From Abditibacteriaceae bacterium (lineage in GTDB: Bacteria; Armatimonadota; Abditibacteriia; Abditibacteriales; Abditibacteriaceae), in NCBI GenBank assembly GCA_031425655.1, contig JANPJS010000151.1, forward strand, positions 1 to 22,998: a DNA stretch of 22,998 nt, written 5' to 3'. This document shows, one piece after another, positions 102-21,155 of the stretch (position 1 is its first letter; every line of letters begins with the position of its first letter). The translations under genes were made by a program, and so were the position numbers. The notes under the pieces were generated by a model. It did not search any database, was not told the DNA's origin, and saw only the letters and a program-made list of their open reading frames with translations.

Positions 102-971
102 CTATCGCCGTGAAACCGACGTAGCGCGCACGGTTTGGCCGTCGAAATATCCGACAACGCGCACACGTTCTCCCAGACCAAAGCGGTCGGCGCCATTGTA
201 AGTCACGTTGTAAGTCGCGCCGTTTTCGCCGCGCACGCTGAGCGTGCCGCGATAACGATCTATGTTGCTCACGAGGCCGGGAAAGTCCACCTGACTGCCG
301 TAATTGCCTCCATAACCGCCGCCGTAGCCGCCATTGTAACCATCGCGCAGAACGACGATTTGATCCGCCGCAATCGTGCTGCCGTTCCATGTGCCGACGA
401 TGCGAACGTAAGCGCCGGCGCTTAGGCTATAAGGCAACCGGCTGCGCGCGTCAACGGTGTAAGTGCGACCATTATCGCCGCGCACCGTGAGGCGCGAATA
501 ATTGCTGACCGAACTCACCGTCGCGGGAAAATCCACTTGGCGATTGCCATAGCCGTAGCCGTCATTTCCCAGATTGCGATAGCGATGAGCGATAAGAAGA
601 TCGCGCGAAACGCGCCCGCTGACTTCGACACGCGCGCCGAGCGACAAATTAAAGTTGCCGCCGTCGTCATGCCAAACCACGCGGTAGCTACGCCCATCGG
701 TGGCGCGCAGCTCGAAATAATCGCGTGCCCAAACGCGGGTGACGCTACCCTGAAAGTAGCTCAGACGCTCGCCGTTGTAATATTCAGTTTGCGCGGAGCC
801 GTAGCGATTTTCGTCGTCCGGCCAGCGCAGAGTCGCTTTGCCGCTGCCGTAAACCCTCGAAGAAATTTCGCTATCGCGCTCGGCGGCGCGCACCGAGCCG
901 TTGAAACCAGCCAAAGTGCTTGCTAAAAGCACGGCGGCGGCGAATCTGCGCCTCAAAACCATCGTTTTCAT
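102..971 (-). CDS. Secreted protein with three OB-fold/DUF5666-like repeat modules (289 aa)
   Basis: Start chosen at ATG 971 with SD GAGGTG upstream. Signal peptide MKTMVLRRRFAAAVLLASTLAGF..VRA. Three copies of F.G.V....L.VRG(D/E)NG.TY.V.....G.RVRV.G......A..(S/I) separated by Gly/Tyr/Asn linkers. The family name is inferred. Confidence 0.8.
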   Translation of the reverse strand: MKTMVLRRRFAAAVLLASTLAGFNGSVRAAERDSEISSRVYGSGKATLRWPDDENRYGSAQTEYYNGERLSYFQGSVTRVWARDYFELRATDGRSYRVVWHDDGGNFNLSLGARVEVSGRVSRDLLIAHRYRNLGNDGYGYGNRQVDFPATVSSVSNYSRLTVRGDNGRTYTVDARSRLPYSLSAGAYVRIVGTWNGSTIAADQIVVLRDGYNGGYGGGYGGNYGSQVDFPGLVSNIDRYRGTLSVRGENGATYNVTYNGADRFGLGERVRVVGYFDGQTVRATSVSRR

Positions 972-1005
972 GGAAAATGCACCTCTTTTGCCCCCATCTC
1001 CGGCG

Positions 1006-1830
1006 TTAACGCGAAACCGAAGAAGCATTCACGACACCGTTCGAGTAGTTGCCGACGATCCGCACGCGGTCGCCGACGCGAAAGTAAGCGTTGCTGTTGT
1101 AACGCACCGTGTAACGCTGCCCGTTGTCGCCGCGCACTCCCAAAGTCACAACGCCGCGATCCGCACGCACCGAATCCACGCGTCCGCCGAAGTTGACGCT
1201 GCTGCCTGTGCCGTAATTTCCATTGTTGCCGGAAACGCGGTCGTCTATCAGCTTCACTTTTTTGGCGAGAATAGCGTTACCGCCGGTTGAAGAAGCGGTC
1301 ACGCGCACGCGGTCGCCGGGGTTGATCTTGGTCGAGAAATCGTCGTTCGAGCTTACCGCGTAAGATTGGCCGTTGTCGCCGCGCACATCCAAACGATAGA
1401 CGGAATAAACGCGGAGCACCGTCGCATCGAACTCGAAGCTCTGGTTCGCCGGCGAATTGTAGCCGCCGGGGTAACTGCCGTTATAGCCGCCCGGATAACC
1501 ATAATCGGGATAGCCGTGATTCCCATTATGGCCGCGATGATCGCAGTCGTCGTCATGGTTGTGGTTGCGGTCGTCATCGCGATTCCCACGCCAATCTCCC
1601 TGCGAATCATGCTTGTTCTTATTCTTGTTCTTGTTCTTGCCGCGATCCTCCCAACGTCCGTGGCGGTCGTCGCGCCGATCTTCCTTGTCACGATAGCCCC
1701 AGGCGGGCGCATGATCTTTTGGCTTGGCCTGCGCCGAAGTCGGGTTCAACAAAGGCAGGAGGGATAAAACGCCTGCGGTCAACAGAGCCACCTTCGCGTG
1801 GCCTTCGTTTTTGCGTGCAATCAGTTTCAT
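1006..1830 (-). CDS. Secreted protein with low-complexity N-terminus and two OB-fold/DUF5666-like modules (274 aa)
   Basis: ATG 1830 preceded by AAAGGAAAG. Signal peptide ..VALLTAGVLSLLPLLNPTSAQA, then an HAPAWGYR motif, a D/R/H/N-rich tract and GYPGGY repeats, then two VRGDNGQ.Y modules homologous to the neighbouring genes. Confidence 0.8.
   Translation of the reverse strand: MKLIARKNEGHAKVALLTAGVLSLLPLLNPTSAQAKPKDHAPAWGYRDKEDRRDDRHGRWEDRGKNKNKNKNKHDSQGDWRGNRDDDRNHNHDDDCDHRGHNGNHGYPDYGYPGGYNGSYPGGYNSPANQSFEFDATVLRVYSVYRLDVRGDNGQSYAVSSNDDFSTKINPGDRVRVTASSTGGNAILAKKVKLIDDRVSGNNGNYGTGSSVNFGGRVDSVRADRGVVTLGVRGDNGQRYTVRYNSNAYFRVGDRVRIVGNYSNGVVNASSVSR
1612..1639. repeat. In-frame hexanucleotide simple repeat encoding KNKNKNKNK
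   Basis: CTTGTT CTTATT CTTGTT CTTGTT CTTG on the + strand. Confidence 0.75.
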
Positions 1831-1906
1831 AGCTTTCCTTTCGTGAATTCGCTGCATTTGGGCAGCGAATCTCATATTTGAAGAAACTCAGTCGAATGCG
1901 ATGCCT

Positions 1907-1932
1907 GACGATGCGCGATTTCACCATGTTCA
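1907..1932 (-). promoter_or_regulatory. Putative ECF-sigma promoter (TGAACAT-N15-CGTC)
   Basis: Minus strand TGAACATggtgaaatcgcgcatCGTCaggca, about 75 nt upstream of the 1830 start. The same motif occurs upstream of the paralogue at 3803 and fits the generic ECF -35 AAC / -10 CGT layout. Confidence 0.6.
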
Positions 1933-1959
1933 TTTCTTTTGAAGGCTCTCGCAACTACG

Positions 1960-1997
1960 AAAAAAAGGAGACGGGCGCTCGGCGCCCGTCTCCTTTT
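1960..1997 (-). terminator. Intrinsic terminator, possibly bidirectional
   Basis: AAAAGGAGACGGGCGC-TCG-GCGCCCGTCTCCTTTT hairpin 15 nt after the stop at 2013, with a 7-U tract on the minus strand. Confidence 0.9.
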
Positions 1998-2012
1998 CTG
2001 CATGAAACGTCT

Positions 2013-3803
2013 TTAGCCAACTGATACAGAAGACGCCGTCACTTTGCCGTTGGAAAAAGTGCCGATGACACGCACGCGGTCGCCGACGCGGAAGGTTTGC
2101 AGATTGCGATACGTCACAACGTAAACCGCTCCATTGTCGCCGCGCACACGCAGAGTGCGAATCAGGCCGTTATTGCTCACGGTTTCGACGCGGCCAAAGA
2201 AATTGACTGCTGCGTTGCCGCCCGTGTTGTTGGTGCGAACCGTTCCGGCAGGATGGTCAACGCTGGTGGCAATGATCAGGTCGCGGTCACGAGCATCAAA
2301 GCGTCCGCGAACGATAACACGGTCGCCGTTGGTCAACCAGCCCGGCTCGCGGTTGGTCGTAGTTACACGATAGGTCTGCCCATTGTCAGCGCGCAGAGTG
2401 AACTGGTTGCCGGAGCGGTCGCGTGTTACTACGCCACCGATACTGACGCTTTGACCAGTTCCTGCCCCAACCCCGGTGCCGTTGGGATGCGTCACGCTGG
2501 TCGCAATGATCAAAGTCGAATTAGCCGCAGTGCGCTTGCCGCGCACGGTGACGCGGTCGCCGTTGGTCAGCCAGCCCGGCTCCTGATTGTTGGTGATAAC
2601 GCGATAAGTGCGTCCGTCATCAGTGCGAAGCGAGAACTGGTTGCCGGCGGGATCGCGGGTCACAATGCCGCTCAATGTCACGTTCAAGCCGTTGCCAACA
2701 CCGCCGACGCCATTAGGATGAGTCACGCTGGTCGCAATGATCAAAGTGCGGTCACTAGTATCAAGCTTGCCGCGAACGGTAACGCGGTCACCGTTCGTCA
2801 CCCAGCCCGGCTCTTGATTGTTGGTAATCACACGGTAGGTGCGACCGTCGTCGGCACGAACGGTGAACTGGTTACCGGCGGGGTCGCGGGTTACGACGCC
2901 GCTGACTGTGATGACCTGACCCACGCCGTTGCCATTGCCAACATTGCCGCCACCGGGATGAGTTACGCTGGTAGCGACGATACGATTCTGGTTGAGGCTG
3001 TTGATTTGGCCACGCACTTCGACGCGGTCACCGTTGGAGAGCCAGCCCGGCTCTTTCCGGTTGGTGACAACGCGATAAATGTGTCCGTCGGTGGCGCGCA
3101 TATTGAATTCGTTGCCTTCAAGATCGCTCGCGACCACGCCGCTGACCGTAACATTCTTGACGTCACCGCCGATTCCGCCGACACCGTTGGATTGAGTCAC
3201 GCTGCTGGCGACGATCAGGTTCTGACTGCTGTTGGTGAGGCGCCCTCGCACTTCAACGCGGTCACCATTGGTGAGCCAGCCCGGCTCTTTCCGGTTGGTG
3301 ACAACACGGTAAGTGCGTCCGTCGTTGGCGCGCAAAGTGAATTGGTTGCCGGCAAGATCACTCGCAACCACACCGTTGAGCGTGATGATCTGGCCAACTT
3401 CGTTTCCAATGCCACCGGTTCCGTTGGATTGAGTCACGCTGGTGGCGATGATTGTGTTTTGATTGCGACTGTCGTAACGGCCTCGCACATCAACGCGGTC
3501 GCCGTTGGTCAGCCAGCCCGGCTCTTTGTTGGTGGTTACCACGCGGTAAGTGCGTCCATCGTTGGCGCGCAAGGTGAATTGGTTGCCGGCCTGATCGCTG
3601 GTGACCACGCCGCTGGCGATGAAGTTACCATTGGTTGTTGGGTTGACGTTGAGTTTGTAATTTCGGTCATCCCAAGTCGGGTTTTTCGGAGCGGCGTGAA
3701 CCGCAATCGGGTTCAAGAACGGCGCGACGGCCAAAGCGCTTGCGGTCAACAAGACCGGCCATTTTACGGCGCTGCGCGTTCCTACGTTTTGTTTCGTAAT
3801 CAT
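2013..3803 (-). CDS. Secreted tandem-repeat protein: six near-identical OB-fold/DUF5666-like modules plus one C-terminal module (596 aa)
   Basis: ATG 3803 with SD GGAGG. Signal peptide ..WPVLLTASALAVAPFLNPIAVHA. Six copies of SGVV..D..GNQFTLRA.DGRTYRV.T...EPGWLTNGDRV.VRG.......IIATSVT, then a final VRGDNGAVY module like those of the two downstream genes. Confidence 0.85.
   Translation of the reverse strand: MITKQNVGTRSAVKWPVLLTASALAVAPFLNPIAVHAAPKNPTWDDRNYKLNVNPTTNGNFIASGVVTSDQAGNQFTLRANDGRTYRVVTTNKEPGWLTNGDRVDVRGRYDSRNQNTIIATSVTQSNGTGGIGNEVGQIITLNGVVASDLAGNQFTLRANDGRTYRVVTNRKEPGWLTNGDRVEVRGRLTNSSQNLIVASSVTQSNGVGGIGGDVKNVTVSGVVASDLEGNEFNMRATDGHIYRVVTNRKEPGWLSNGDRVEVRGQINSLNQNRIVATSVTHPGGGNVGNGNGVGQVITVSGVVTRDPAGNQFTVRADDGRTYRVITNNQEPGWVTNGDRVTVRGKLDTSDRTLIIATSVTHPNGVGGVGNGLNVTLSGIVTRDPAGNQFSLRTDDGRTYRVITNNQEPGWLTNGDRVTVRGKRTAANSTLIIATSVTHPNGTGVGAGTGQSVSIGGVVTRDRSGNQFTLRADNGQTYRVTTTNREPGWLTNGDRVIVRGRFDARDRDLIIATSVDHPAGTVRTNNTGGNAAVNFFGRVETVSNNGLIRTLRVRGDNGAVYVVTYRNLQTFRVGDRVRVIGTFSNGKVTASSVSVG
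2245..3620. repeat. Six intragenic tandem repeats with a 231-240 nt period
   Basis: Anchor CCAGCCCGGCTC recurs at 2337, 2571, 2802, 3042, 3276 and 3513. Boundaries are approximate. Confidence 0.92.
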
Positions 3804-3897
3804 GATATTTTCCTCCAAAGGAAGTTGAGCATCGCTTAGATGCAAAATCGCCGCCCGTGTTACATTGGATGTCCCATCGGGCTGCATGGTGCCTGAA

Positions 3898-3922
3898 GAC
3901 GGCACGAGGTCAATTATGTTCA
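3898..3922 (-). promoter_or_regulatory. Putative ECF-sigma promoter (TGAACAT-N14-CGTC)
   Basis: Minus strand TGAACATaattgacctcgtgcCGTCttcaggca, matching the motif at 1907-1932, including the downstream TCAGGCA. Confidence 0.6.
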
Positions 3923-3935
3923 CTTTCGGCGGGAT

Positions 3936-6402: not shown

Positions 6403-6530
6403 TAACCACGGATAAACACGGATAAACACGGATGGTTTTCCTTTGCTCGGCCTGAGTTTTCTCCTTATGGGCTTGGCGGCTATTCAATATGGTTTACGAA
6501 TCCGCGTTTATCAGTGTCCATCCGTGGTTA
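6403..6530. repeat. REP-like inverted repeat, CACGGAT 10-mer family
   Basis: TAACCACGGATAAACACGGATAAACACGGAT (6403-6433) / ATCCGCGTTTATCAGTGTCCATCCGTGGTTA (6500-6530), 27 of 31 complementary, 66-nt spacer. It ends 9 nt before ATG 6540. Confidence 0.85.
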
Positions 6531-8636: not shown

Positions 8637-8843
8637 ATGAAAAACGGCTGGGTTGAGAAAATAGGCAAAATCAGCGAGATGGATCGCTCGTTCGATATCG
8701 AATTCTGGCAGGCACAAAGCGCCGAAATGCGTTTTGAGGTCGGTTGGCAGTTGGTCGTGGATTACTACGAATTCAAGGGGAAAAATCTCGATGAACTCCG
8801 ACTTCAAAGAACTGTTGAAAATCTTGAGCGAGTTTCACGTTAG
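8637..8843 (+). CDS. Small hypothetical protein, putative antitoxin-like partner of the downstream nucleotidyltransferase
   Basis: 68 aa, with SFDIEFWQAQSAEMRF and RLQRTVE. Overlaps the downstream gene by 53 nt. TAAACT lies 6 nt before the ATG, so the mRNA may be leaderless. Confidence 0.65.
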   Translation: MKNGWVEKIGKISEMDRSFDIEFWQAQSAEMRFEVGWQLVVDYYEFKGKNLDELRLQRTVENLERVSR

Positions 8844-9234
8844 GTTTATGATTATCGGCGGCTACGCTTACATGAATTACGTGGAGCCGCGCTACACCAA
8901 AGACCTCGATTTGTGGATTTCTACCGACCGTTCCAACGCGGAATCAACATTCCAAGCCTTGCGTCATTTTGGCGCGCCGTTGGCGGATGTAACACCTGAT
9001 GATTTCGCCGACCCAAACTGCATTTATCACATGGGCAACGCGCCCGTGCGCGTGGATTTTCTCATGTCCATTCCCGGTGTTGAATTTCAGGATGCGTGGC
9101 TGCGCCGCGTGGAAGTCATAACAGATGGTTTTTCTGTGCCGTTTATTTCCAAAGCTGACCTCATCGTGGCCAAACGCGCTGCCGGACGCCCGCAAGATTT
9201 AGTAGACGCCGACTTGTTGGAACAAGCCCCCTAA
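8791..9234 (+). CDS. Pol-beta-superfamily nucleotidyltransferase (DUF6036/AbiEii-like)
   Basis: IIGGYA...EPRYTKDLDLWI, RVDFL and KRAAGRPQDLVD motifs. AAGGGG lies upstream of ATG 8791. Confidence 0.85.
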   Translation: MNSDFKELLKILSEFHVRFMIIGGYAYMNYVEPRYTKDLDLWISTDRSNAESTFQALRHFGAPLADVTPDDFADPNCIYHMGNAPVRVDFLMSIPGVEFQDAWLRRVEVITDGFSVPFISKADLIVAKRAAGRPQDLVDADLLEQAP

Positions 9235-10355: not shown

Positions 10356-12395
10356 ATGAGAATCTCAACCGAATGGCTTAACGAATACGTTGCTACGCCG
10401 CCCGATGCTGAACTCGAACACGTTTTCGAGATGGCCGGAATTGGTGTGGAAAATCACGAAAACGGCGTGTGGACGCTGGAAATTACCTCGAATCGCGGCG
10501 ATTGGCTGTCGGCGCAGGGTTTGGCGCGCGAAATTTCAGCGATGACCGGCGCATCGCTGAAAACTACGCAACCAGACATCGTCGCAACCGGCTTTGAAAG
10601 CGGCGAAGCGACGAGCGCGGCCATCCGGGTGGAAATCGAAGACGCCGACGACTGCGCGCATTACGTCGCGCGGATTATTGAAGGCGTGCAAATCGGGCCG
10701 TCGCCGGATTGGATGCAAAAACGCCTCGTCGAGTGCGGAATGCGGCCCATCAACAACGTGGTGGACGTGACCAATTACGTCATGCTGGAAACCGGCCAGC
10801 CGTTGCACGCCTTCGACGCCGACACGCTACGCGGCGATACAATCATCGTGCGACGCGCGCAAAGCGGTGAAAAACTGGTGACATTAGACGAAACCGAGCG
10901 CGAACTCGACGACGAAGTGCTGCTTATCACCGACGAATCCGGGCCAATCGGCATTGCGGGCATCATGGGCGGGCACAACAGCGAGGTGACGGAGCGCACC
11001 ACGCGCATTTTTTTAGAAAGCGCTCATTTTTCGCCGACACGCACACGGCGCGGCGCGCGAGCGCTGAATCTCCGCACCGAAGCCAGCCGCCGCTTCGAGC
11101 GTTGGGTTGACCCCAATAGCGTGCTGCGCTGCGCCGACCGCGCCGCGCGATTATTGGCCGAATGTTGTGGCGGGCGCATCGCGCCGGGCGTGACGGACGT
11201 GTGTTCGCGCATCGTTGACCCGGCACTCGTGACGCTGCGCTTCGCGCGCTGCCGCGCGATTTTAGGACTCGATTTAAGCGAGGACGAAGTCGTTTCCGCC
11301 TTACAACGCTTGGGTTTTGAAGTCGAACCGGCGGAGGAGAGCGCGACGGTTTCGATTCCAACATGGCGGCGCGACATTGAGCGTGAAATTGACCTCATCG
11401 AAGAAGTGGCGCGCATTCACGGCTACGACAAAATTCCGACGACGCTGCCCAAAAACTCTGTTCCCGGCGCCGGACTCAACGCCGCGCAACGCTTGCAGCA
11501 AGCGGCACGCGCTACCCTGCTCGGCTGTGGCTTGAACGAAATCGTGACTTATTCGCTGGAAAACAGCGCCGCCACACAGCGCGCCGGTTTGACGCAAGAA
11601 GCACCCGCCGTAACGCTGCGAAACCCTCTGACCGAAGACTACACGCAGCTTCGCACCTCGCTCATTCCATCGCTGCTGAACGTGCTGTCCAACAATGCGC
11701 GAACGCGCGCCGGAATTTTTGAAATCGGCAAAGTCTTCGCCTCGAAGCACGAATTGCAGCCCGACGAGCCGCTTAAAATCGGCATTGCCCTGCTGGACGC
11801 GCCTGTTGAGCCGCATTGGCGCAAAGAAACGCCGACCGCCGATTTCTTCGCGCTCAAAGCGGTCGTCGAAACGCTGCTTTCGGCTTTAGGCGCGCCCGGC
11901 GGCGATTATCGCCCGGCGCTTCATCCCTCGTTGCATCCCGGTCGCTGCGCCGAAATCGTGCTGGACGGCGAAACGCTCGGCATTATCGGCGAAGTGCATC
12001 CCGACGTGCGCGAAAACTACAATCTCAAGTCGCGCGCGGTGCTGGCGCAGCTCGATTGGGCCATTTTAGCGAACCACGCGCAGCCATCGCGCACCGCGCA
12101 AACGGTTTCGCGCTTCCCGGCCAGCGACCGCGATTTAGCTTTGGTCTTAAATTATGAAGTGCCTGCCGCGCGTGTCGAAAAAGCCGCGCGCGAGGCGGCG
12201 GGAGCCTTGCTGGAAAGTGTGCGCGTTTTCGATGTTTATACGGGTTCGCCGATTCCCGAAGGCCAGAAAAGCCTTGCCATTTCGCTTCGCTTTCGCGCAA
12301 AAGAACGCACTTTAACCGACGCCGAAGTGGACGAAGCCATGACCAAAGTGCGCGCCGCAACCGAAAGCACGCTCGGCGCACAGGTGCGAAGTTGA
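10356..12395 (+). CDS. pheT: Phenylalanine--tRNA ligase beta subunit, short form without the B2 domain
   Basis: EITSNRGD, B3/4 RPINNVVDVTNYVMLETGQPLHAFD, B5 WRRDIEREIDLIEEVARIHGYD, C-terminal FDX-ACB RFPASDRDLA...FDVY.G...KSLA. 679 aa. Confidence 0.98.
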   Translation: MRISTEWLNEYVATPPDAELEHVFEMAGIGVENHENGVWTLEITSNRGDWLSAQGLAREISAMTGASLKTTQPDIVATGFESGEATSAAIRVEIEDADDCAHYVARIIEGVQIGPSPDWMQKRLVECGMRPINNVVDVTNYVMLETGQPLHAFDADTLRGDTIIVRRAQSGEKLVTLDETERELDDEVLLITDESGPIGIAGIMGGHNSEVTERTTRIFLESAHFSPTRTRRGARALNLRTEASRRFERWVDPNSVLRCADRAARLLAECCGGRIAPGVTDVCSRIVDPALVTLRFARCRAILGLDLSEDEVVSALQRLGFEVEPAEESATVSIPTWRRDIEREIDLIEEVARIHGYDKIPTTLPKNSVPGAGLNAAQRLQQAARATLLGCGLNEIVTYSLENSAATQRAGLTQEAPAVTLRNPLTEDYTQLRTSLIPSLLNVLSNNARTRAGIFEIGKVFASKHELQPDEPLKIGIALLDAPVEPHWRKETPTADFFALKAVVETLLSALGAPGGDYRPALHPSLHPGRCAEIVLDGETLGIIGEVHPDVRENYNLKSRAVLAQLDWAILANHAQPSRTAQTVSRFPASDRDLALVLNYEVPAARVEKAAREAAGALLESVRVFDVYTGSPIPEGQKSLAISLRFRAKERTLTDAEVDEAMTKVRAATESTLGAQVRS

Positions 12396-12440
12396 TAACT
12401 CACGGAGAGAACGCAGAGGGCGCAGAGAATTGAATTCTCT
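12396..12440. repeat. Left part of a CGCAGAG 9-mer repeat element (full left arm, truncated right arm)
   Basis: TAACT-CACGGAGAG-AACGCAGAG-GGCGCAGAG-AATTGAATTCTCT immediately after the pheT stop. Confidence 0.7.
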
Positions 12441-13655
12441 ATGCCGCTGACTATCTGTCTACAAAATAAGCTCATGCGAAGAAGCCGCATTGCATATTCT
12501 TTAATAATCTCGTTGCCTGCCGTCTTGTTCGTTGTCATTGGTGCGACTCAAGAACGTAGAACATGGCTGCCACGCACGACGAGCGTCTCTGTTCCGGGAA
12601 ATGTTAGCCTTTTTCAATTTACTCCCGACAGCCAGAAAATTGGGGTTGACGGTTGTTATACACCTCCTTTTGAAGAAACGATTTGTAGCGACATCACTCT
12701 TTTCGACACTCAAAATCTAAATCGTCAGCGCAGTGAATCAACGGACAAGAGGCAATCTCTATTTGAGCCGCATAGCTTAATTGCCACGCAAAATAGTGCG
12801 GGAACAATTATGCTCCAGCGCGCAGGCACTGGTAAATTGTTACGATCATGGCGCTCGTTTAAACCTCAAAGCCAGTCCTCTGAGTTCACATTCTCCGCAG
12901 ATTGGCAGATTTTAGCAGAACTCCGCAAAAACAAAGATCCACTTGATAAAAAACCACTTCCTACTTCTTTAGTATTGTGGAACACAAACGACGGCACTCC
13001 GCGCGGCAAGCTAATCCTGCCCGAAGCAGATTATTGGAACTCTCCATCTTGGATAGCTGCCAATGGCAAAATGGTAGCTTTTGAGGGCGGAACTTCCGGT
13101 CATTCAGAGGTGCGCTGTTTTGATATGGCAACTGGGCAAGAGTGGATTCAAGACCGCTATAACGGAATTACAGATTCAATTGACATAGAAACAAAGCGAG
13201 GTTTATTGGCCTGCATTCACGAAGCGCAAAGCTCCGCCGTTCTCTATGATATGAATACCGGCAAAGGCTTGTGGCACAAAAAAACTACAGGCAACGCAAG
13301 CATTACGTTTAATCCTGATGGCACAATGTTGGCTTTGAGTGATTCCAAAGCCGGAAAAATTTGGCTTTTAGCTACGAAGACTGGAGCAATCCAGCACACA
13401 CTGGCTATGGAGATAAATCAAGAAAAAAGCAATCAAACTCGTATTAGAACCATGTTCTCGCCTGACGGCAAAACACTTGTGGTTATCAGTGCCGACGACA
13501 AAAAGATTTCGCTTTGGGATACTGCGATAGGAAAACTGCTCCGCCGCTTGCCTTATAATGGTTCAGCGATTTGGGGCATTAACGTTTCACCTGACGGAAC
13601 AACTTTGGCTACGTTGAGCGATAACCTAATTCTTTCTCTCTGGCGCCTCAAATAA
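12441..13655 (+). CDS. Membrane-anchored WD40/YVTN beta-propeller protein (AT-rich)
   Basis: N-terminal hydrophobic segment IAYSLIISLPAVLFVVIG. Blade motifs FTPDSQK, FNPDGTMLA, FSPDGKTL..ISLWD, VSPDGTTLA..LSLWR. The start could be 12474. Sampled 60-nt lines are 37-42% GC versus 68% in a pheT line. Confidence 0.85.
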   Translation: MPLTICLQNKLMRRSRIAYSLIISLPAVLFVVIGATQERRTWLPRTTSVSVPGNVSLFQFTPDSQKIGVDGCYTPPFEETICSDITLFDTQNLNRQRSESTDKRQSLFEPHSLIATQNSAGTIMLQRAGTGKLLRSWRSFKPQSQSSEFTFSADWQILAELRKNKDPLDKKPLPTSLVLWNTNDGTPRGKLILPEADYWNSPSWIAANGKMVAFEGGTSGHSEVRCFDMATGQEWIQDRYNGITDSIDIETKRGLLACIHEAQSSAVLYDMNTGKGLWHKKTTGNASITFNPDGTMLALSDSKAGKIWLLATKTGAIQHTLAMEINQEKSNQTRIRTMFSPDGKTLVVISADDKKISLWDTAIGKLLRRLPYNGSAIWGINVSPDGTTLATLSDNLILSLWRLK

Positions 13656-13713
13656 CATAGAAAAAGCGCAGAGAATTTTATATTTCTCTGCGCTCTTTGC
13701 ACCTCTGCGGTTA
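13653..13713. repeat. Right part of a CGCAGAG repeat element (degenerate left arm, full right arm)
   Basis: AGCGCAGAGAA-TTTTATAT-TTCTCTGCGCT-CTTTGCACCTCTGCGGTTA between convergent stop codons. Confidence 0.75.
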
Positions 13714-13714
13714 A

Positions 13715-14095
13715 TTATTTCCGGCGCGTGCCTGTCGCCAGCAAGCCGATAAGCGTTAGCGCGCTGAGCGCAGTCATGCCCATCGCGCGCTTTTTGGCGC
13801 TTTCGCGTTTCTTCGCTGCAGCTTCGGAACTGGTGGTCGTGCTGTTCGTCGCAGGCGCGCTGGAATCACTTAAACCTTGAAGGAAAAAAGCGCCGACGTT
13901 GAGAACCACGACAATCGCTAAGGGCAGCGCCCAGCTTTTGCGCTGTTGAAAGCCGCGCCCGGCAGCGGTGCAAAGCGCGCCGCCGCCCACGCCGGCGATG
14001 AGCGAAGCCATGCTGCCTGCCATCGCAAAGCCCATAATGCCGCCTAAAACCAGCAAAGCACCGTAAACAAAGCAAATCATTGCGGGAGTTTTCAT
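13715..14095 (-). CDS. TMEM14 family membrane protein
   Basis: YGALLVLGGIMGF..AGSMASLIAGVGGG signature and about four hydrophobic segments. Confidence 0.85.
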   Translation of the reverse strand: MKTPAMICFVYGALLVLGGIMGFAMAGSMASLIAGVGGGALCTAAGRGFQQRKSWALPLAIVVVLNVGAFFLQGLSDSSAPATNSTTTSSEAAAKKRESAKKRAMGMTALSALTLIGLLATGTRRK

Positions 14096-14146
14096 AAAGT
14101 CAAATCCTTGAGGCGCAACAGAAAGGAAAGGCGTCGCGCCCCCTCC

Positions 14147-14175
14147 ATTTTCACCGCTTGGTGTCGCGCGGTCAA
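14147..14175 (-). promoter_or_regulatory. Candidate sigma70 promoter for the TMEM14 gene
   Basis: Minus strand TTGACC-N17-GAAAAT. Confidence 0.4.
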
Positions 14176-14178
14176 CAG

Positions 14179-15645
14179 TTAAGCGAGGAGCGCTTTCACC
14201 ACGTTGCCATGCACGTCGGTCAGACGGAAATCGCGGCCCGCGTAGCGATATGTCAGTTTGGTGTGGTCGAAGCCGAGCAACTGCAAAATCGTGGCGTGTA
14301 GGTCGTGAACGTGAACCGGCTTATCTTGCGCTGCAAAGCCGAATTCGTCGGTCGCGCCGTAAACCGTGCCGCCTTTGACGCCGCCGCCTGCCATCCACAT
14401 CGTGAAACCGTGATGATTGTGGTCGCGGCCATTCATTTTACCGGCGTTGGCGCCCGGCGTCGGCAGTTCGACAACCGGAGTGCGCCCAAATTCGCCGCCC
14501 CAAATGACAAGAGTTTCTTCCAGCATTCCAAGCCGTTTCAAGTCGGTTAAAAGCGCGGCGATGGGTTTATCGGACTGATTCGCCAGACTGCGATGGCCGC
14601 TTTCGATGTCGTCGTGATTGTCCCACGGTTGCCCGGCGCCGTGATAAAGCTGGATAAAGCGCACGCCGCGTTCGGCCAAGCGCCGCGAAATTAAGCAGGC
14701 CCGCGCGAAATCGCCGCCGCCATACATCGCTTTCGTCTCTGCCGATTCTTTGTCCACATCGAAGGCATCGGTCGCGTCCGATTGCATCCGATAGGCTAAT
14801 TCAAACGATTGGATGCGCGATTCCAACTGCCCGTCGTTTTGGCGCTGTTTCAGGTGCCGCGCGTTGAGTTGCTGCACCAAATCGAGCTGCGCACGTTGGT
14901 CGTCGGTCGTTAAATTATGGTTCCGCACGTTGGAAACCAGTTTCTCGATGTCGGTGTGCTTTGGGTCAATGTAAGTGCCCGCTAAAACTCCCGGCAAAAA
15001 GCCCGACTGCCAGTTTTGCGTTTCCTGAATCGGATATCCGCCCGGACACATGGCGATAAAACCCGGCAAATTCTGGTTTTCGGTGCCCAGTCCGTAAGTC
15101 ACCCACGAACCCATGCTGGGCCGCACCAAACGCGCTTCGCCGCAGTTCATTAAAAGCAGCGACGGCTCGTGGTTAGGCACATCGGCGTGCATCGAGCGAA
15201 TAATGCACATATCGTCAACGTGCTTGGCGACGTTGGGAAAAATGTCGCTGACTTCGATTCCGCTTTGCCCGTGCTTGGCAAATTTAAACGGCGACGGCAA
15301 AGCGTTGCCGGTTTTGCGCTCTGTTCGCAAATCCAGCGGAATCGGCTTGCCCGCATATTCCAGCAATTTCGGTTTGGGGTCGAAAGTATCCACTTGCGAC
15401 GGCCCGCCGTTCATAAAGAGGAAAATAACGCGCTTGGCTTTGGCCGGAAACTGCGGCGCGTGCGGCGCCAGCGGGCTTTGCGCCATCGCCGCATTAGTGC
15501 CGGAAGCCGCATTGACGGTCGCCGCCAACGCTTGCGGCCCGGCCACGCCCGCTAATCCGAGCATTGCGAAGCCGTTGCCCATGCGCGAGAGAAACTCGCG
15601 GCGCGTTAAAAAGTGTTCGTCCAGACGGGGTTTATGATGCGACAT
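14179..15645 (-). CDS. DUF1501 domain protein (sulfatase-like), Tat-exported
   Basis: TRREFL Tat motif, AKRVIFLFMNGGPSQVDTFDPKP, GSWVTYGLGTENQNLPGF, ERGVRF, GEFGRTP, GRDHN, RDFRLTDVHG. Confidence 0.95.
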   Translation of the reverse strand: MSHHKPRLDEHFLTRREFLSRMGNGFAMLGLAGVAGPQALAATVNAASGTNAAMAQSPLAPHAPQFPAKAKRVIFLFMNGGPSQVDTFDPKPKLLEYAGKPIPLDLRTERKTGNALPSPFKFAKHGQSGIEVSDIFPNVAKHVDDMCIIRSMHADVPNHEPSLLLMNCGEARLVRPSMGSWVTYGLGTENQNLPGFIAMCPGGYPIQETQNWQSGFLPGVLAGTYIDPKHTDIEKLVSNVRNHNLTTDDQRAQLDLVQQLNARHLKQRQNDGQLESRIQSFELAYRMQSDATDAFDVDKESAETKAMYGGGDFARACLISRRLAERGVRFIQLYHGAGQPWDNHDDIESGHRSLANQSDKPIAALLTDLKRLGMLEETLVIWGGEFGRTPVVELPTPGANAGKMNGRDHNHHGFTMWMAGGGVKGGTVYGATDEFGFAAQDKPVHVHDLHATILQLLGFDHTKLTYRYAGRDFRLTDVHGNVVKALLA

Positions 15646-20370: not shown

Positions 20371-20443
20371 TCTCGCAAAGACGCAAAGGCGCAAAGAAGC
20401 AAAGAAGAAATGTTTTGCTTGGCGTCTTTGCGTCTTTGCGAGA
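20371..20443. repeat. REP-like palindromic element, CGCAAAG family (copy B)
   Basis: TCTCGCAAAGACGCAAAGGCGCAAAGAAGCAAAG ... TTTGCTTGGCGTCTTTGCGTCTTTGCGAGA, followed directly by GGTTAAAAC-ATG. Confidence 0.9.
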
Positions 20444-21092: not shown

Positions 21093-21155
21093 TCTCGCAA
21101 AGACGCCAAGTCGCAAAGAAACTTTTCTTCTTTGCGACTTGGCGTCTTTGCGAGA
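21093..21155. repeat. REP-like palindromic element, CGCAAAG family (copy C)
   Basis: Perfect 28-bp inverted repeat TCTCGCAAAGACGCCAAGTCGCAAAGAA / TTCTTTGCGACTTGGCGTCTTTGCGAGA with a 7-nt loop, followed by GGTAAAAC-ATG. Confidence 0.92.

Follow-up and report, generated by a model that had tools for sequence, protein, structure and literature searches.

Homology-facilitated illegitimate recombination (HFIR), a form of additive recombination, has been described as a rare but real process (PMC5361080, PMC2884548), its rarity being reported in the first of these papers; both cite the primary study, and the details used here are those that they give. The displacement scars in the passages concerned are like the locus presented here in that a non-homologous gene is added beside a conserved sequence and a resident piece is shifted downstream, with no linked recombinase. 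Unlike those scars, in which a gene end or an immunity gene is displaced, the displaced piece here is an intergenic palindrome, both flanking copies are clipped, and no donor was found.

REPIN/RAYT systems and TIRtrons (PMC3116915, PMC3733652) also comprise hundreds of intergenic inverted hairpin doublets, a few of which bracket an enzyme gene. Passenger genes are not described in the passages that deal with them. In contrast to these systems as presented there, the gene bracketed by hairpin arms of the family described here is not a tyrosine transposase but a member of the GxxExxY family (TIGR04256, PF13366), and the arms are arrays of three 8–10-nt units.

ORF-bearing 23S rRNA intervening sequences, as outlined in PMC4990558, carry a small ORF in a selfish insert. 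Genes for the 23S rRNA IVS protein (PF05635) are present in the genome studied here, where five of the seven lie between inverted arrays of 7-nt units (contigs C74, C54, C92, C262 and C26) and represent a second type of cargo and of arm. The WD40 gene described below differs from such inserts: at 1.2 kb, it lies outside rRNA, is unrelated to S23p and has outer arms that are poor partners of each other.

The locus also resembles an integron cassette, since a single compact low-GC gene stands between hairpin-forming repeats and an integrase-like gene is found elsewhere in the genome. attC sites contain the boxes RYYYAAC and GTTRRRY, and crossover takes place at the outer GTT. Unlike such cassettes, the locus has no attC core boxes, its repeated part is the inner stem, and there is no array. 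The attC-like repeats of this genome belong to a different family and are found around low-GC genes on contigs C211, C218, C326, C186, C193 and C41.

A WD40 gene between two clipped hairpins

The window, meaning the whole stretch of DNA that was analysed, comprises positions 1 to 22,998 of a contig (C151) from an Abditibacteriaceae bacterium (assembly GCA_031425655.1; G000 below). In this genome, 4251 genes were called with our own ORF and codon model. Three congeners, G001, G002 and G003, served for comparison. An earlier note, made from the letters of the window alone, had singled out a WD40 gene lying as if inserted in a palindromic repeat between pheT and a TMEM14 gene. The features of the interval are as follows.

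10356..12395, + strand: pheT, resident left neighbour (Pfam B3_4, B5, tRNA_synthFbeta and FDX-ACB; orthologues in the three congeners, 67–70% identity)
12396..12428, + strand: left arm, 33 nt, of a three-unit hairpin (CGCAGAG subfamily) with a non-canonical outer unit, beginning at the pheT stop; matches the position of the left arm in the empty sites of G001 and G002
12420..12431, + strand: 12-bp direct repeat GCGCAGAGAATT, copy 1; family consensus in 9 bases
12429..12445, + strand: loop of the left hairpin (7 nt) and its right arm, clipped or decayed to a 10-nt stub; contains the ATG at 12441
12474..13655, + strand: WD40 beta-propeller gene of the W-R-x-K family, with an N-terminal hydrophobic segment (Pfam WD40 families, hydropathy, family alignment; 45.4% GC); longest frame from 12441
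13661..13684, + strand: right hairpin, left arm clipped to 14 nt, and loop (10 nt)
13661..13698, − strand: terminator-like stem of 15 pairs with a T tail, on the TMEM14 strand (by consensus scan only)
13666..13677, + strand: 12-bp direct repeat GCGCAGAGAATT, copy 2
13685..13714, + strand: right arm, complete, 30 nt, reaching the TMEM14 stop as does the right arm of the empty sites
13715..14095, − strand: TMEM14-family gene (PF03647), resident right neighbour; adjoins pheT in G001 and G002

The WD40 gene had been said to carry almost no flanking DNA, and this is the case: 5 nt separate its stop codon from the right stub. It is the one gene in the pheT–TMEM14 interval, which holds no cassette array. 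In three loci (window 13656–13659, C117 of G000, and L345), the letters CATA lie on or close to the boundary of gene and stub; they may be a decayed repeat unit.

The assembly of the locus is backed by one contig of read run X1, the probable source run and the only one found to contain the locus; this contig covers positions 10745–14380 with zero differences from the window. None of the 15 listed joints, out of 89 in that run, is an excision joint skipping the WD40 gene, a weak test in that contigs drop rare variants. Runs X2, X4 and X5 yielded pieces from relatives only at the locus; these are short and of low depth and are therefore uninformative on excision.

Elsewhere in the window, four intact three-unit hairpins of other subfamilies stand at gene junctions (25–91, 6403–6530, 20371–20443 and 21093–21155), and an Rfam scan of the window gave 0 matches. 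PheT (10356–12395) is 679 aa long, close to the length of its orthologues in the family, and its Pfam matches include no N-terminal tRNA-binding domain. Before pheS, at 8638–9234, lies a nucleotidyltransferase gene (DUF2204/DUF6036) with a short upstream frame; a similar pair occurs at C227:24984–25621, where G003 carries a hairpin. Three neighbouring genes with related repeats occupy positions 102–3923, the largest of them with five repeats of about 235 bp and matches to DUF5818/DUF5666.

The same junction in relatives

The earlier note had proposed that relatives might show an empty single hairpin, and this is what is found in G001 and G002 at the exact pheT/TMEM14 junction, where pheT is followed by one hairpin that fills the 73- or 80-bp gap and then by TMEM14. 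With one hairpin in the relatives and a gene between two clipped ones in G000, the insertion of the WD40 gene is real and lineage-specific. The hairpin at this junction is of a different subfamily in each of the four genomes, which means that hairpin turnover at the site is frequent.

In G003, whose assembly is 79% complete and has frameshift errors, pheT and TMEM14 are on separate contigs (C8 and C13), and a hairpin stands beside each. The right arms of these two hairpins are identical at 36 of 44 positions. In the 1.6 Mb examined, out of a total of about 5.3 Mb, they match each other better than any other of 18 comparable copies (score 28, next 21). The hairpin on the TMEM14 side is cut to a stem of 15 pairs that faces an SMI1/KNR4 gene in a stretch of 46% GC. 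Judged from this likeness in an imperfect assembly, G003 appears to record an independent event that left a similar scar beside a different neighbour gene.

The nearest genomes are rather distant by PheT, as the identities given above indicate. A metagenome scan with a TMEM14 alignment returned 80 loci, with pheT in none of them, and so offered no closer junction for comparison.

The direct repeat and the two hairpins

The sequence GCGCAGAGAATT was found in direct orientation at both positions where it had been reported (12420–12431 and 13666–13677); with one mismatch allowed, the window contains 4 matches where 0.24 would be expected. The right hairpin had been described as a degenerate left arm followed by a complete right arm, and a long arm with a short partner is indeed present there. 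The left one had been described as a complete three-unit left arm with only a stub for a right arm. Here too there is a long arm with a short partner, but its outer unit is non-canonical and the stub is longer than AATTCTCT: TCTCTATGCC (12436–12445) agrees with the family arm apart from two changes and contains the first ATG.

It had further been suggested that deletion between the direct repeats rebuilds an intact hairpin with the architecture of others in the window. A 17-nt pairing with two G-T pairs does result, but the rebuilt hairpin is atypical and weak. At −20.7 kcal/mol, it is exceeded in stability by 70 of 71 intact hairpins with short loops, which had been chosen for being well paired. 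The outer arms score 14 as partners of each other, against a median of 28 (17 of 304 pairs are equally low) and against 26–27 with other copies of the family; for the right stub, the arm of its own hairpin is the better partner. Since the outer arms fit other copies better than each other and the rebuilt hairpin is weak, the flanks are parts either of two copies or of one old copy, and not the two halves of one recent, freshly cut hairpin.

The repeat is mostly family sequence. The inner unit is followed by A in 80 of 107 arms and 9 of the 12 bases are family consensus, so that ATT alone is extra. Two independent insertions had been put forward as an explanation of the direct repeat should AATT be the normal consensus after GCGCAGAG; it is not, as AATT follows in 3 of 31 arms. 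The 12-mer occurs in 2 of 106 other arm readings, and an identical 12-mer is common to 97 of 5565 random arm pairs. The direct repeat alone is weak evidence, and a role for it as a specific recombination site is not supported.

The WD40 family

The ORF has a GC content of 45.4% (GC3 43%), compared with 60.0% for pheT and 56.7% for the genome, and is in the lowest 1% by this measure, 35 of 3590 called genes longer than 450 nt being as low. The earlier note was thus right that the gene is low in GC, but its figures of 37–42% against about 68% reflect extreme lines, given that 60-nt lines span 37–55% in the ORF and 47–72% in pheT.

The product matches PF00400 with 39 bits (cut-off 27) and WD40 clusters in Atlas (0.94–0.96), and its hydropathy reaches 2.4 over residues 6–24. 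Members of the family have a hydrophobic N-terminal segment, a W-R-x-K end and, in several of them, a W-x-P-R motif. The family alignment favours a start at the ATG at 12474 over the first ATG at 12441. From these features, the protein is most likely a membrane-anchored propeller that would act as a binding surface.

A profile of the family matches 11 genes in G000, 7 in G002, 3 in G001 and 0 in G003. With this protein as the query, there was no match in 26 family genomes at E ≤ 1e-15, and the 356 matches in a protein database search (lengths 222–707 only) are generic WD40 repeats, mostly with 22–45% identity over parts. The 10 paralogues in G001 and G002 have 44–51% GC and are sited in stretches of 52–53% GC. 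Because GC is generally low in this WD40 family, the foreign-looking composition of the gene is no proof that the donor was distant. Among the 17 paralogues checked, hairpin arms stand beside 0 of 7 in G000 and 0 of 10 in G001 and G002. The family is most likely native to the lineage and without a tie to the hairpins. Tandem pairs or triplets of its members with a repeated end/start junction sequence are found at C186:11487–14294 and on C164 of G000, and on C181 of G002.

A hairpin family linked to GxxExxY genes

G000 contains hundreds of intergenic palindromes in which each arm consists of three units of 8–10 nt. A library of arms from 171 clean hairpins of this genome found 304 paired and 184 unpaired arms; the calls rest on similarity to that library, and arms are under-detected in relatives. 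The 184 unpaired arms comprise 74 with a degenerate partner, 36 at contig ends, 32 with a stub and 42 with none. An arm is present at 372 of 3924 junctions, and 107 of 792 arms belong to the CGCAGAG-type subfamily. The hairpins occupy a median of 78% of the gap in which they lie (208 cases), which means that inserts leaving the genes intact will tend to fall within a hairpin.

A search for GxxExxY genes linked to the repeats, one of the checks that had been proposed, gave a positive result. Eight strong G000 genes of this family lie in or between arms, and inverted arms are present at 26 of 28 GxxExxY loci in family genomes, compared with 65 of 756 mismatched pairs. The GxxExxY gene on C54 (9201–9551) is bracketed by the same arm subfamily as the WD40 locus. 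Arm-partner scores at three GxxExxY units are 34, 37 and 21; unlike these units, the WD40 locus, at 14, has poorly matched arms and stubs on both sides. The corresponding search for RAYT genes was negative, as three-unit arms lie within 700 bp of none of the six Y1_Tnp (PF01797) genes, two of which are near contig ends.

The hairpin family is thus tied to a small nuclease gene and is poorly described. A literature search, which had most subscription journals and supplements outside its range, gave no description of the three-unit repeat family or its passengers. Of three papers on "GxxExxY", the two listed do not deal with repeats, as judged by title or the start of the abstract. To our knowledge, no activity of a GxxExxY nuclease has been reported.

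Two further elements were seen in association with the hairpins. The arms of many hairpins that are unrelated to one another contain a small palindrome with the core GGTGCCCTCTGGGC, whose pattern has 285 matches in G000 and 18 in the 1.6 Mb of G003 sequence. Hairpin loops, often at contig ends (C58, C88, C92, C107, C197, C263 and C325 of G000), harbour a multi-copy element whose copies share one end; it is possibly an insertion sequence that targets three-unit hairpins.

Other genes inside broken hairpins

Whether low-GC genes, defined as those under 50% GC, are enriched between split elements was another of the checks that had been proposed. For adjacency, the genome-wide test gave the reverse: an arm stands beside 7 of 176 low-GC genes and 596 of 3442 others (odds ratio 0.2). 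Two of the 176 are beside an intact hairpin, both of them GxxExxY genes, and all three low-GC genes beside arms that are not GxxExxY face a broken one. Unpartnered arms on both sides were found for 5 of 3618 genes, namely two GxxExxY genes, the WD40 gene and one gene each on C169 and C221; one-sided cases of a gene facing an unpartnered arm are on C79 and C117. The proposal that the hairpins are capture sites for genes is borne out to the extent that broken hairpins enclose a small number of other genes, but general, attC-like capture is unsupported.

The gene on C169 (12972–13417, L044) encodes a 125-aa orphan that fills a hairpin loop, its ATG being supplied by the arm. The same junction has an empty hairpin in G002 and a homologous gene with one arm in G003. 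Homologues in four genomes of another genus have no arms, and a genome-collection scan with this gene gave no match. On C221 (6086–7290, L045), a 311-aa gene with no Pfam match lies between well-matched 36-bp arms. The arm-partner score is 24 for C169 and 32 for C221. When serC, mqnA and the neighbour of the C221 gene were followed in the three congeners, the downstream genes differed and there was no clean empty site.

A further low-GC orphan (C207:40365–40923, L265) is enclosed by a perfect 54-bp duplication that takes in a gene end and part of an arm, and its frame ends within the duplicated gene end. The orphan occupies the ftsI–murE junction, where G003 has an empty hairpin and both G034 and G031 carry GxxExxY cassettes. 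In 2.1 Mb of G002 and G003, none of the 26 unpaired arms belonged to a two-sided passenger. The breakpoints within hairpins vary between loci.

Of 489 syntenic junctions compared with 2.1 Mb of G001–G003, 91 differ by an insert. An arm is present on the empty side of 6 of 55 such junctions versus 18 of 398 (p = 0.057) and, in a second comparison, of 7 of 36 versus 48 of 398 (p = 0.20). At a threshold score of 16, which the WD40 repeat, at 12, does not reach, flanking direct repeats were counted for 21 of 203 low-GC genes, compared with 95 of 3542 other genes and 14 of 3974 random pairs. Sorted into rough classes, the 21 repeats comprise 11 that overlap a neighbour gene, 6 that are attC-like, 1 three-unit arm and 3 others, one of them a terminator-type hairpin. 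Repeats scoring at least 14 surround 4 of 51 syntenic inserts in G000 and 1 of 34 in relatives. At C155, C227 and C282, the sequence duplicated around the insert is an ordinary terminator-type hairpin. The direct-repeat scars of G000 are mostly duplicated gene ends or terminators.

How the gene may have entered

The WD40 locus most likely works like a displacement scar and not like an attC or REPIN cassette. The explanation that we favour, with a confidence slightly better than even, is that homology-assisted additive recombination displaced the junction hairpin, of which a 15-bp stem was retained as a terminator-like site for TMEM14. The ancestral junction would have held one gap-filling palindromic repeat, probably doubling as a terminator. 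DNA from a relative would have paired on one side, at the end of pheT and/or the pheT hairpin, and the opposite end would have joined via short homology within the resident hairpin. The latter would thereby be shifted downstream behind the new gene, with its gene-facing arm clipped. The flanks would then be parts of two different hairpin copies and the 12-bp repeat the inner unit common to both, not a dedicated site. We infer the recombination route, the donor and the anchor side, as well as one or two clipping events and selection on the stem as a TMEM14 terminator.

The observed basis for this explanation is the empty and filled states, the hybrid arms, the scar in G003 and the fact that, across the genome, duplication scars are in excess around low-GC genes. 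As in such scars, the insert is absent from relatives, and the junction sequence is present twice, with the displaced copy truncated towards the insert. By a weak consensus scan, the retained stems are terminator-like on the TMEM14 strand in G000, in G003 and in the empty site of G001; terminator-like sites number 3 in 1.5 kb against 2.5 in shuffles. Such a role of the stem may explain the persistence of about 15 pairs. The presence of ComEC and DprA in G000 also fits this explanation. Several points speak against additive recombination. ComEC and DprA match in 10–11 of 14 control genomes as well, and HFIR is itself reported to be rare. A one-sided event clips one hairpin and two are clipped here, so that either two events or two joints within hairpins would be needed. 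The score of the WD40 repeat is below the scar threshold, no donor was found, and repeats scoring at least 14 are confined to the few syntenic inserts counted above. The genes on C169 and C221, between their well-matched arms, are more cassette-like.

It is unlikely, in our estimate, that the three-unit hairpins are gene-less versions of the GxxExxY arm-gene-arm cassette that are opened by the nuclease acting in trans, with passengers such as the WD40 gene inserted by repair or cassette exchange. The GxxExxY genes in or between arms and the inverted arms at 26 of 28 loci argue for this model, as do the alternate states of the ftsI–murE junction and the C169 gene, with its arm-derived ATG and its empty and occupied counterparts in G002 and G003. 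Of the five genes that have an unpartnered arm facing them on either side, three fall outside the GxxExxY family, and a broken hairpin faces every low-GC gene beside arms that is not a member of it. Against it stand the depletion of low-GC genes beside arms, the lack of a clear enrichment of arms on the empty sides of insertion junctions, the absence of arms from the WD40 paralogues and from the C169 homologues of another genus, the lack of two-sided passengers in G002 and G003, breakpoints that change from locus to locus, and a nuclease family with no activity that we know of. Somewhat more doubtful still is an origin from two independent hairpins, in which the WD40 gene came by an unrelated route, a second copy of the repeat arrived later at the new convergent junction, and the arms towards the gene either decayed or had units removed through slippage. 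The poor partnership of the outer arms, the better pairing of the right stub with its own arm, the frequent turnover implied by four subfamilies in four genomes and the presence of an arm at 372 of 3924 junctions all fit this account, and a reading of the left stub as a full arm that has decayed is possible. However, it requires that one subfamily, with 107 of 792 arms, arrived twice and that precisely the two arms facing the gene eroded, low-GC genes other than GxxExxY are not seen beside intact hairpins, and G003 shows one hairpin duplicated at this very junction. Movement by the integron-integrase-like gene at C103:4880–5845, with the hairpins as attC equivalents, is very improbable. A three-unit hairpin lies just downstream of that gene, and the cassette would be a single gene with almost no flanking DNA. 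However, RYYYAAC and GTTRRRY are absent at both ends of the locus, and both boxes occur in 2 of 191 hairpins; the repeat is in the inner stem, away from the outer GTT of attC crossover, and G000 has separate attC-like repeats around six low-GC genes. The integron explanation is largely refuted by the motif test. What probability remains belongs to routes other than these four.

Significance

Under additive recombination, the favoured explanation, the locus would be a clear example of the entry of an accessory gene at a gene junction without a recombinase, in which the displaced piece is a repeat or terminator, a useful if modest addition. There is a small chance that GxxExxY-linked hairpins are reusable junction slots, each able to contain an empty hairpin, a nuclease cassette or an unrelated passenger gene, and that capture follows the opening of the hairpin by the nuclease. 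The multi-state junctions pheT/TMEM14, ubiA/aroB and ftsI/murE are concrete substrates for testing this idea. If it were true, a very common nuclease family of unknown function, together with its hairpins, would carry passengers. This would provide an integrase-free route of single-gene acquisition at hundreds of sites per genome and a function for the GxxExxY family.
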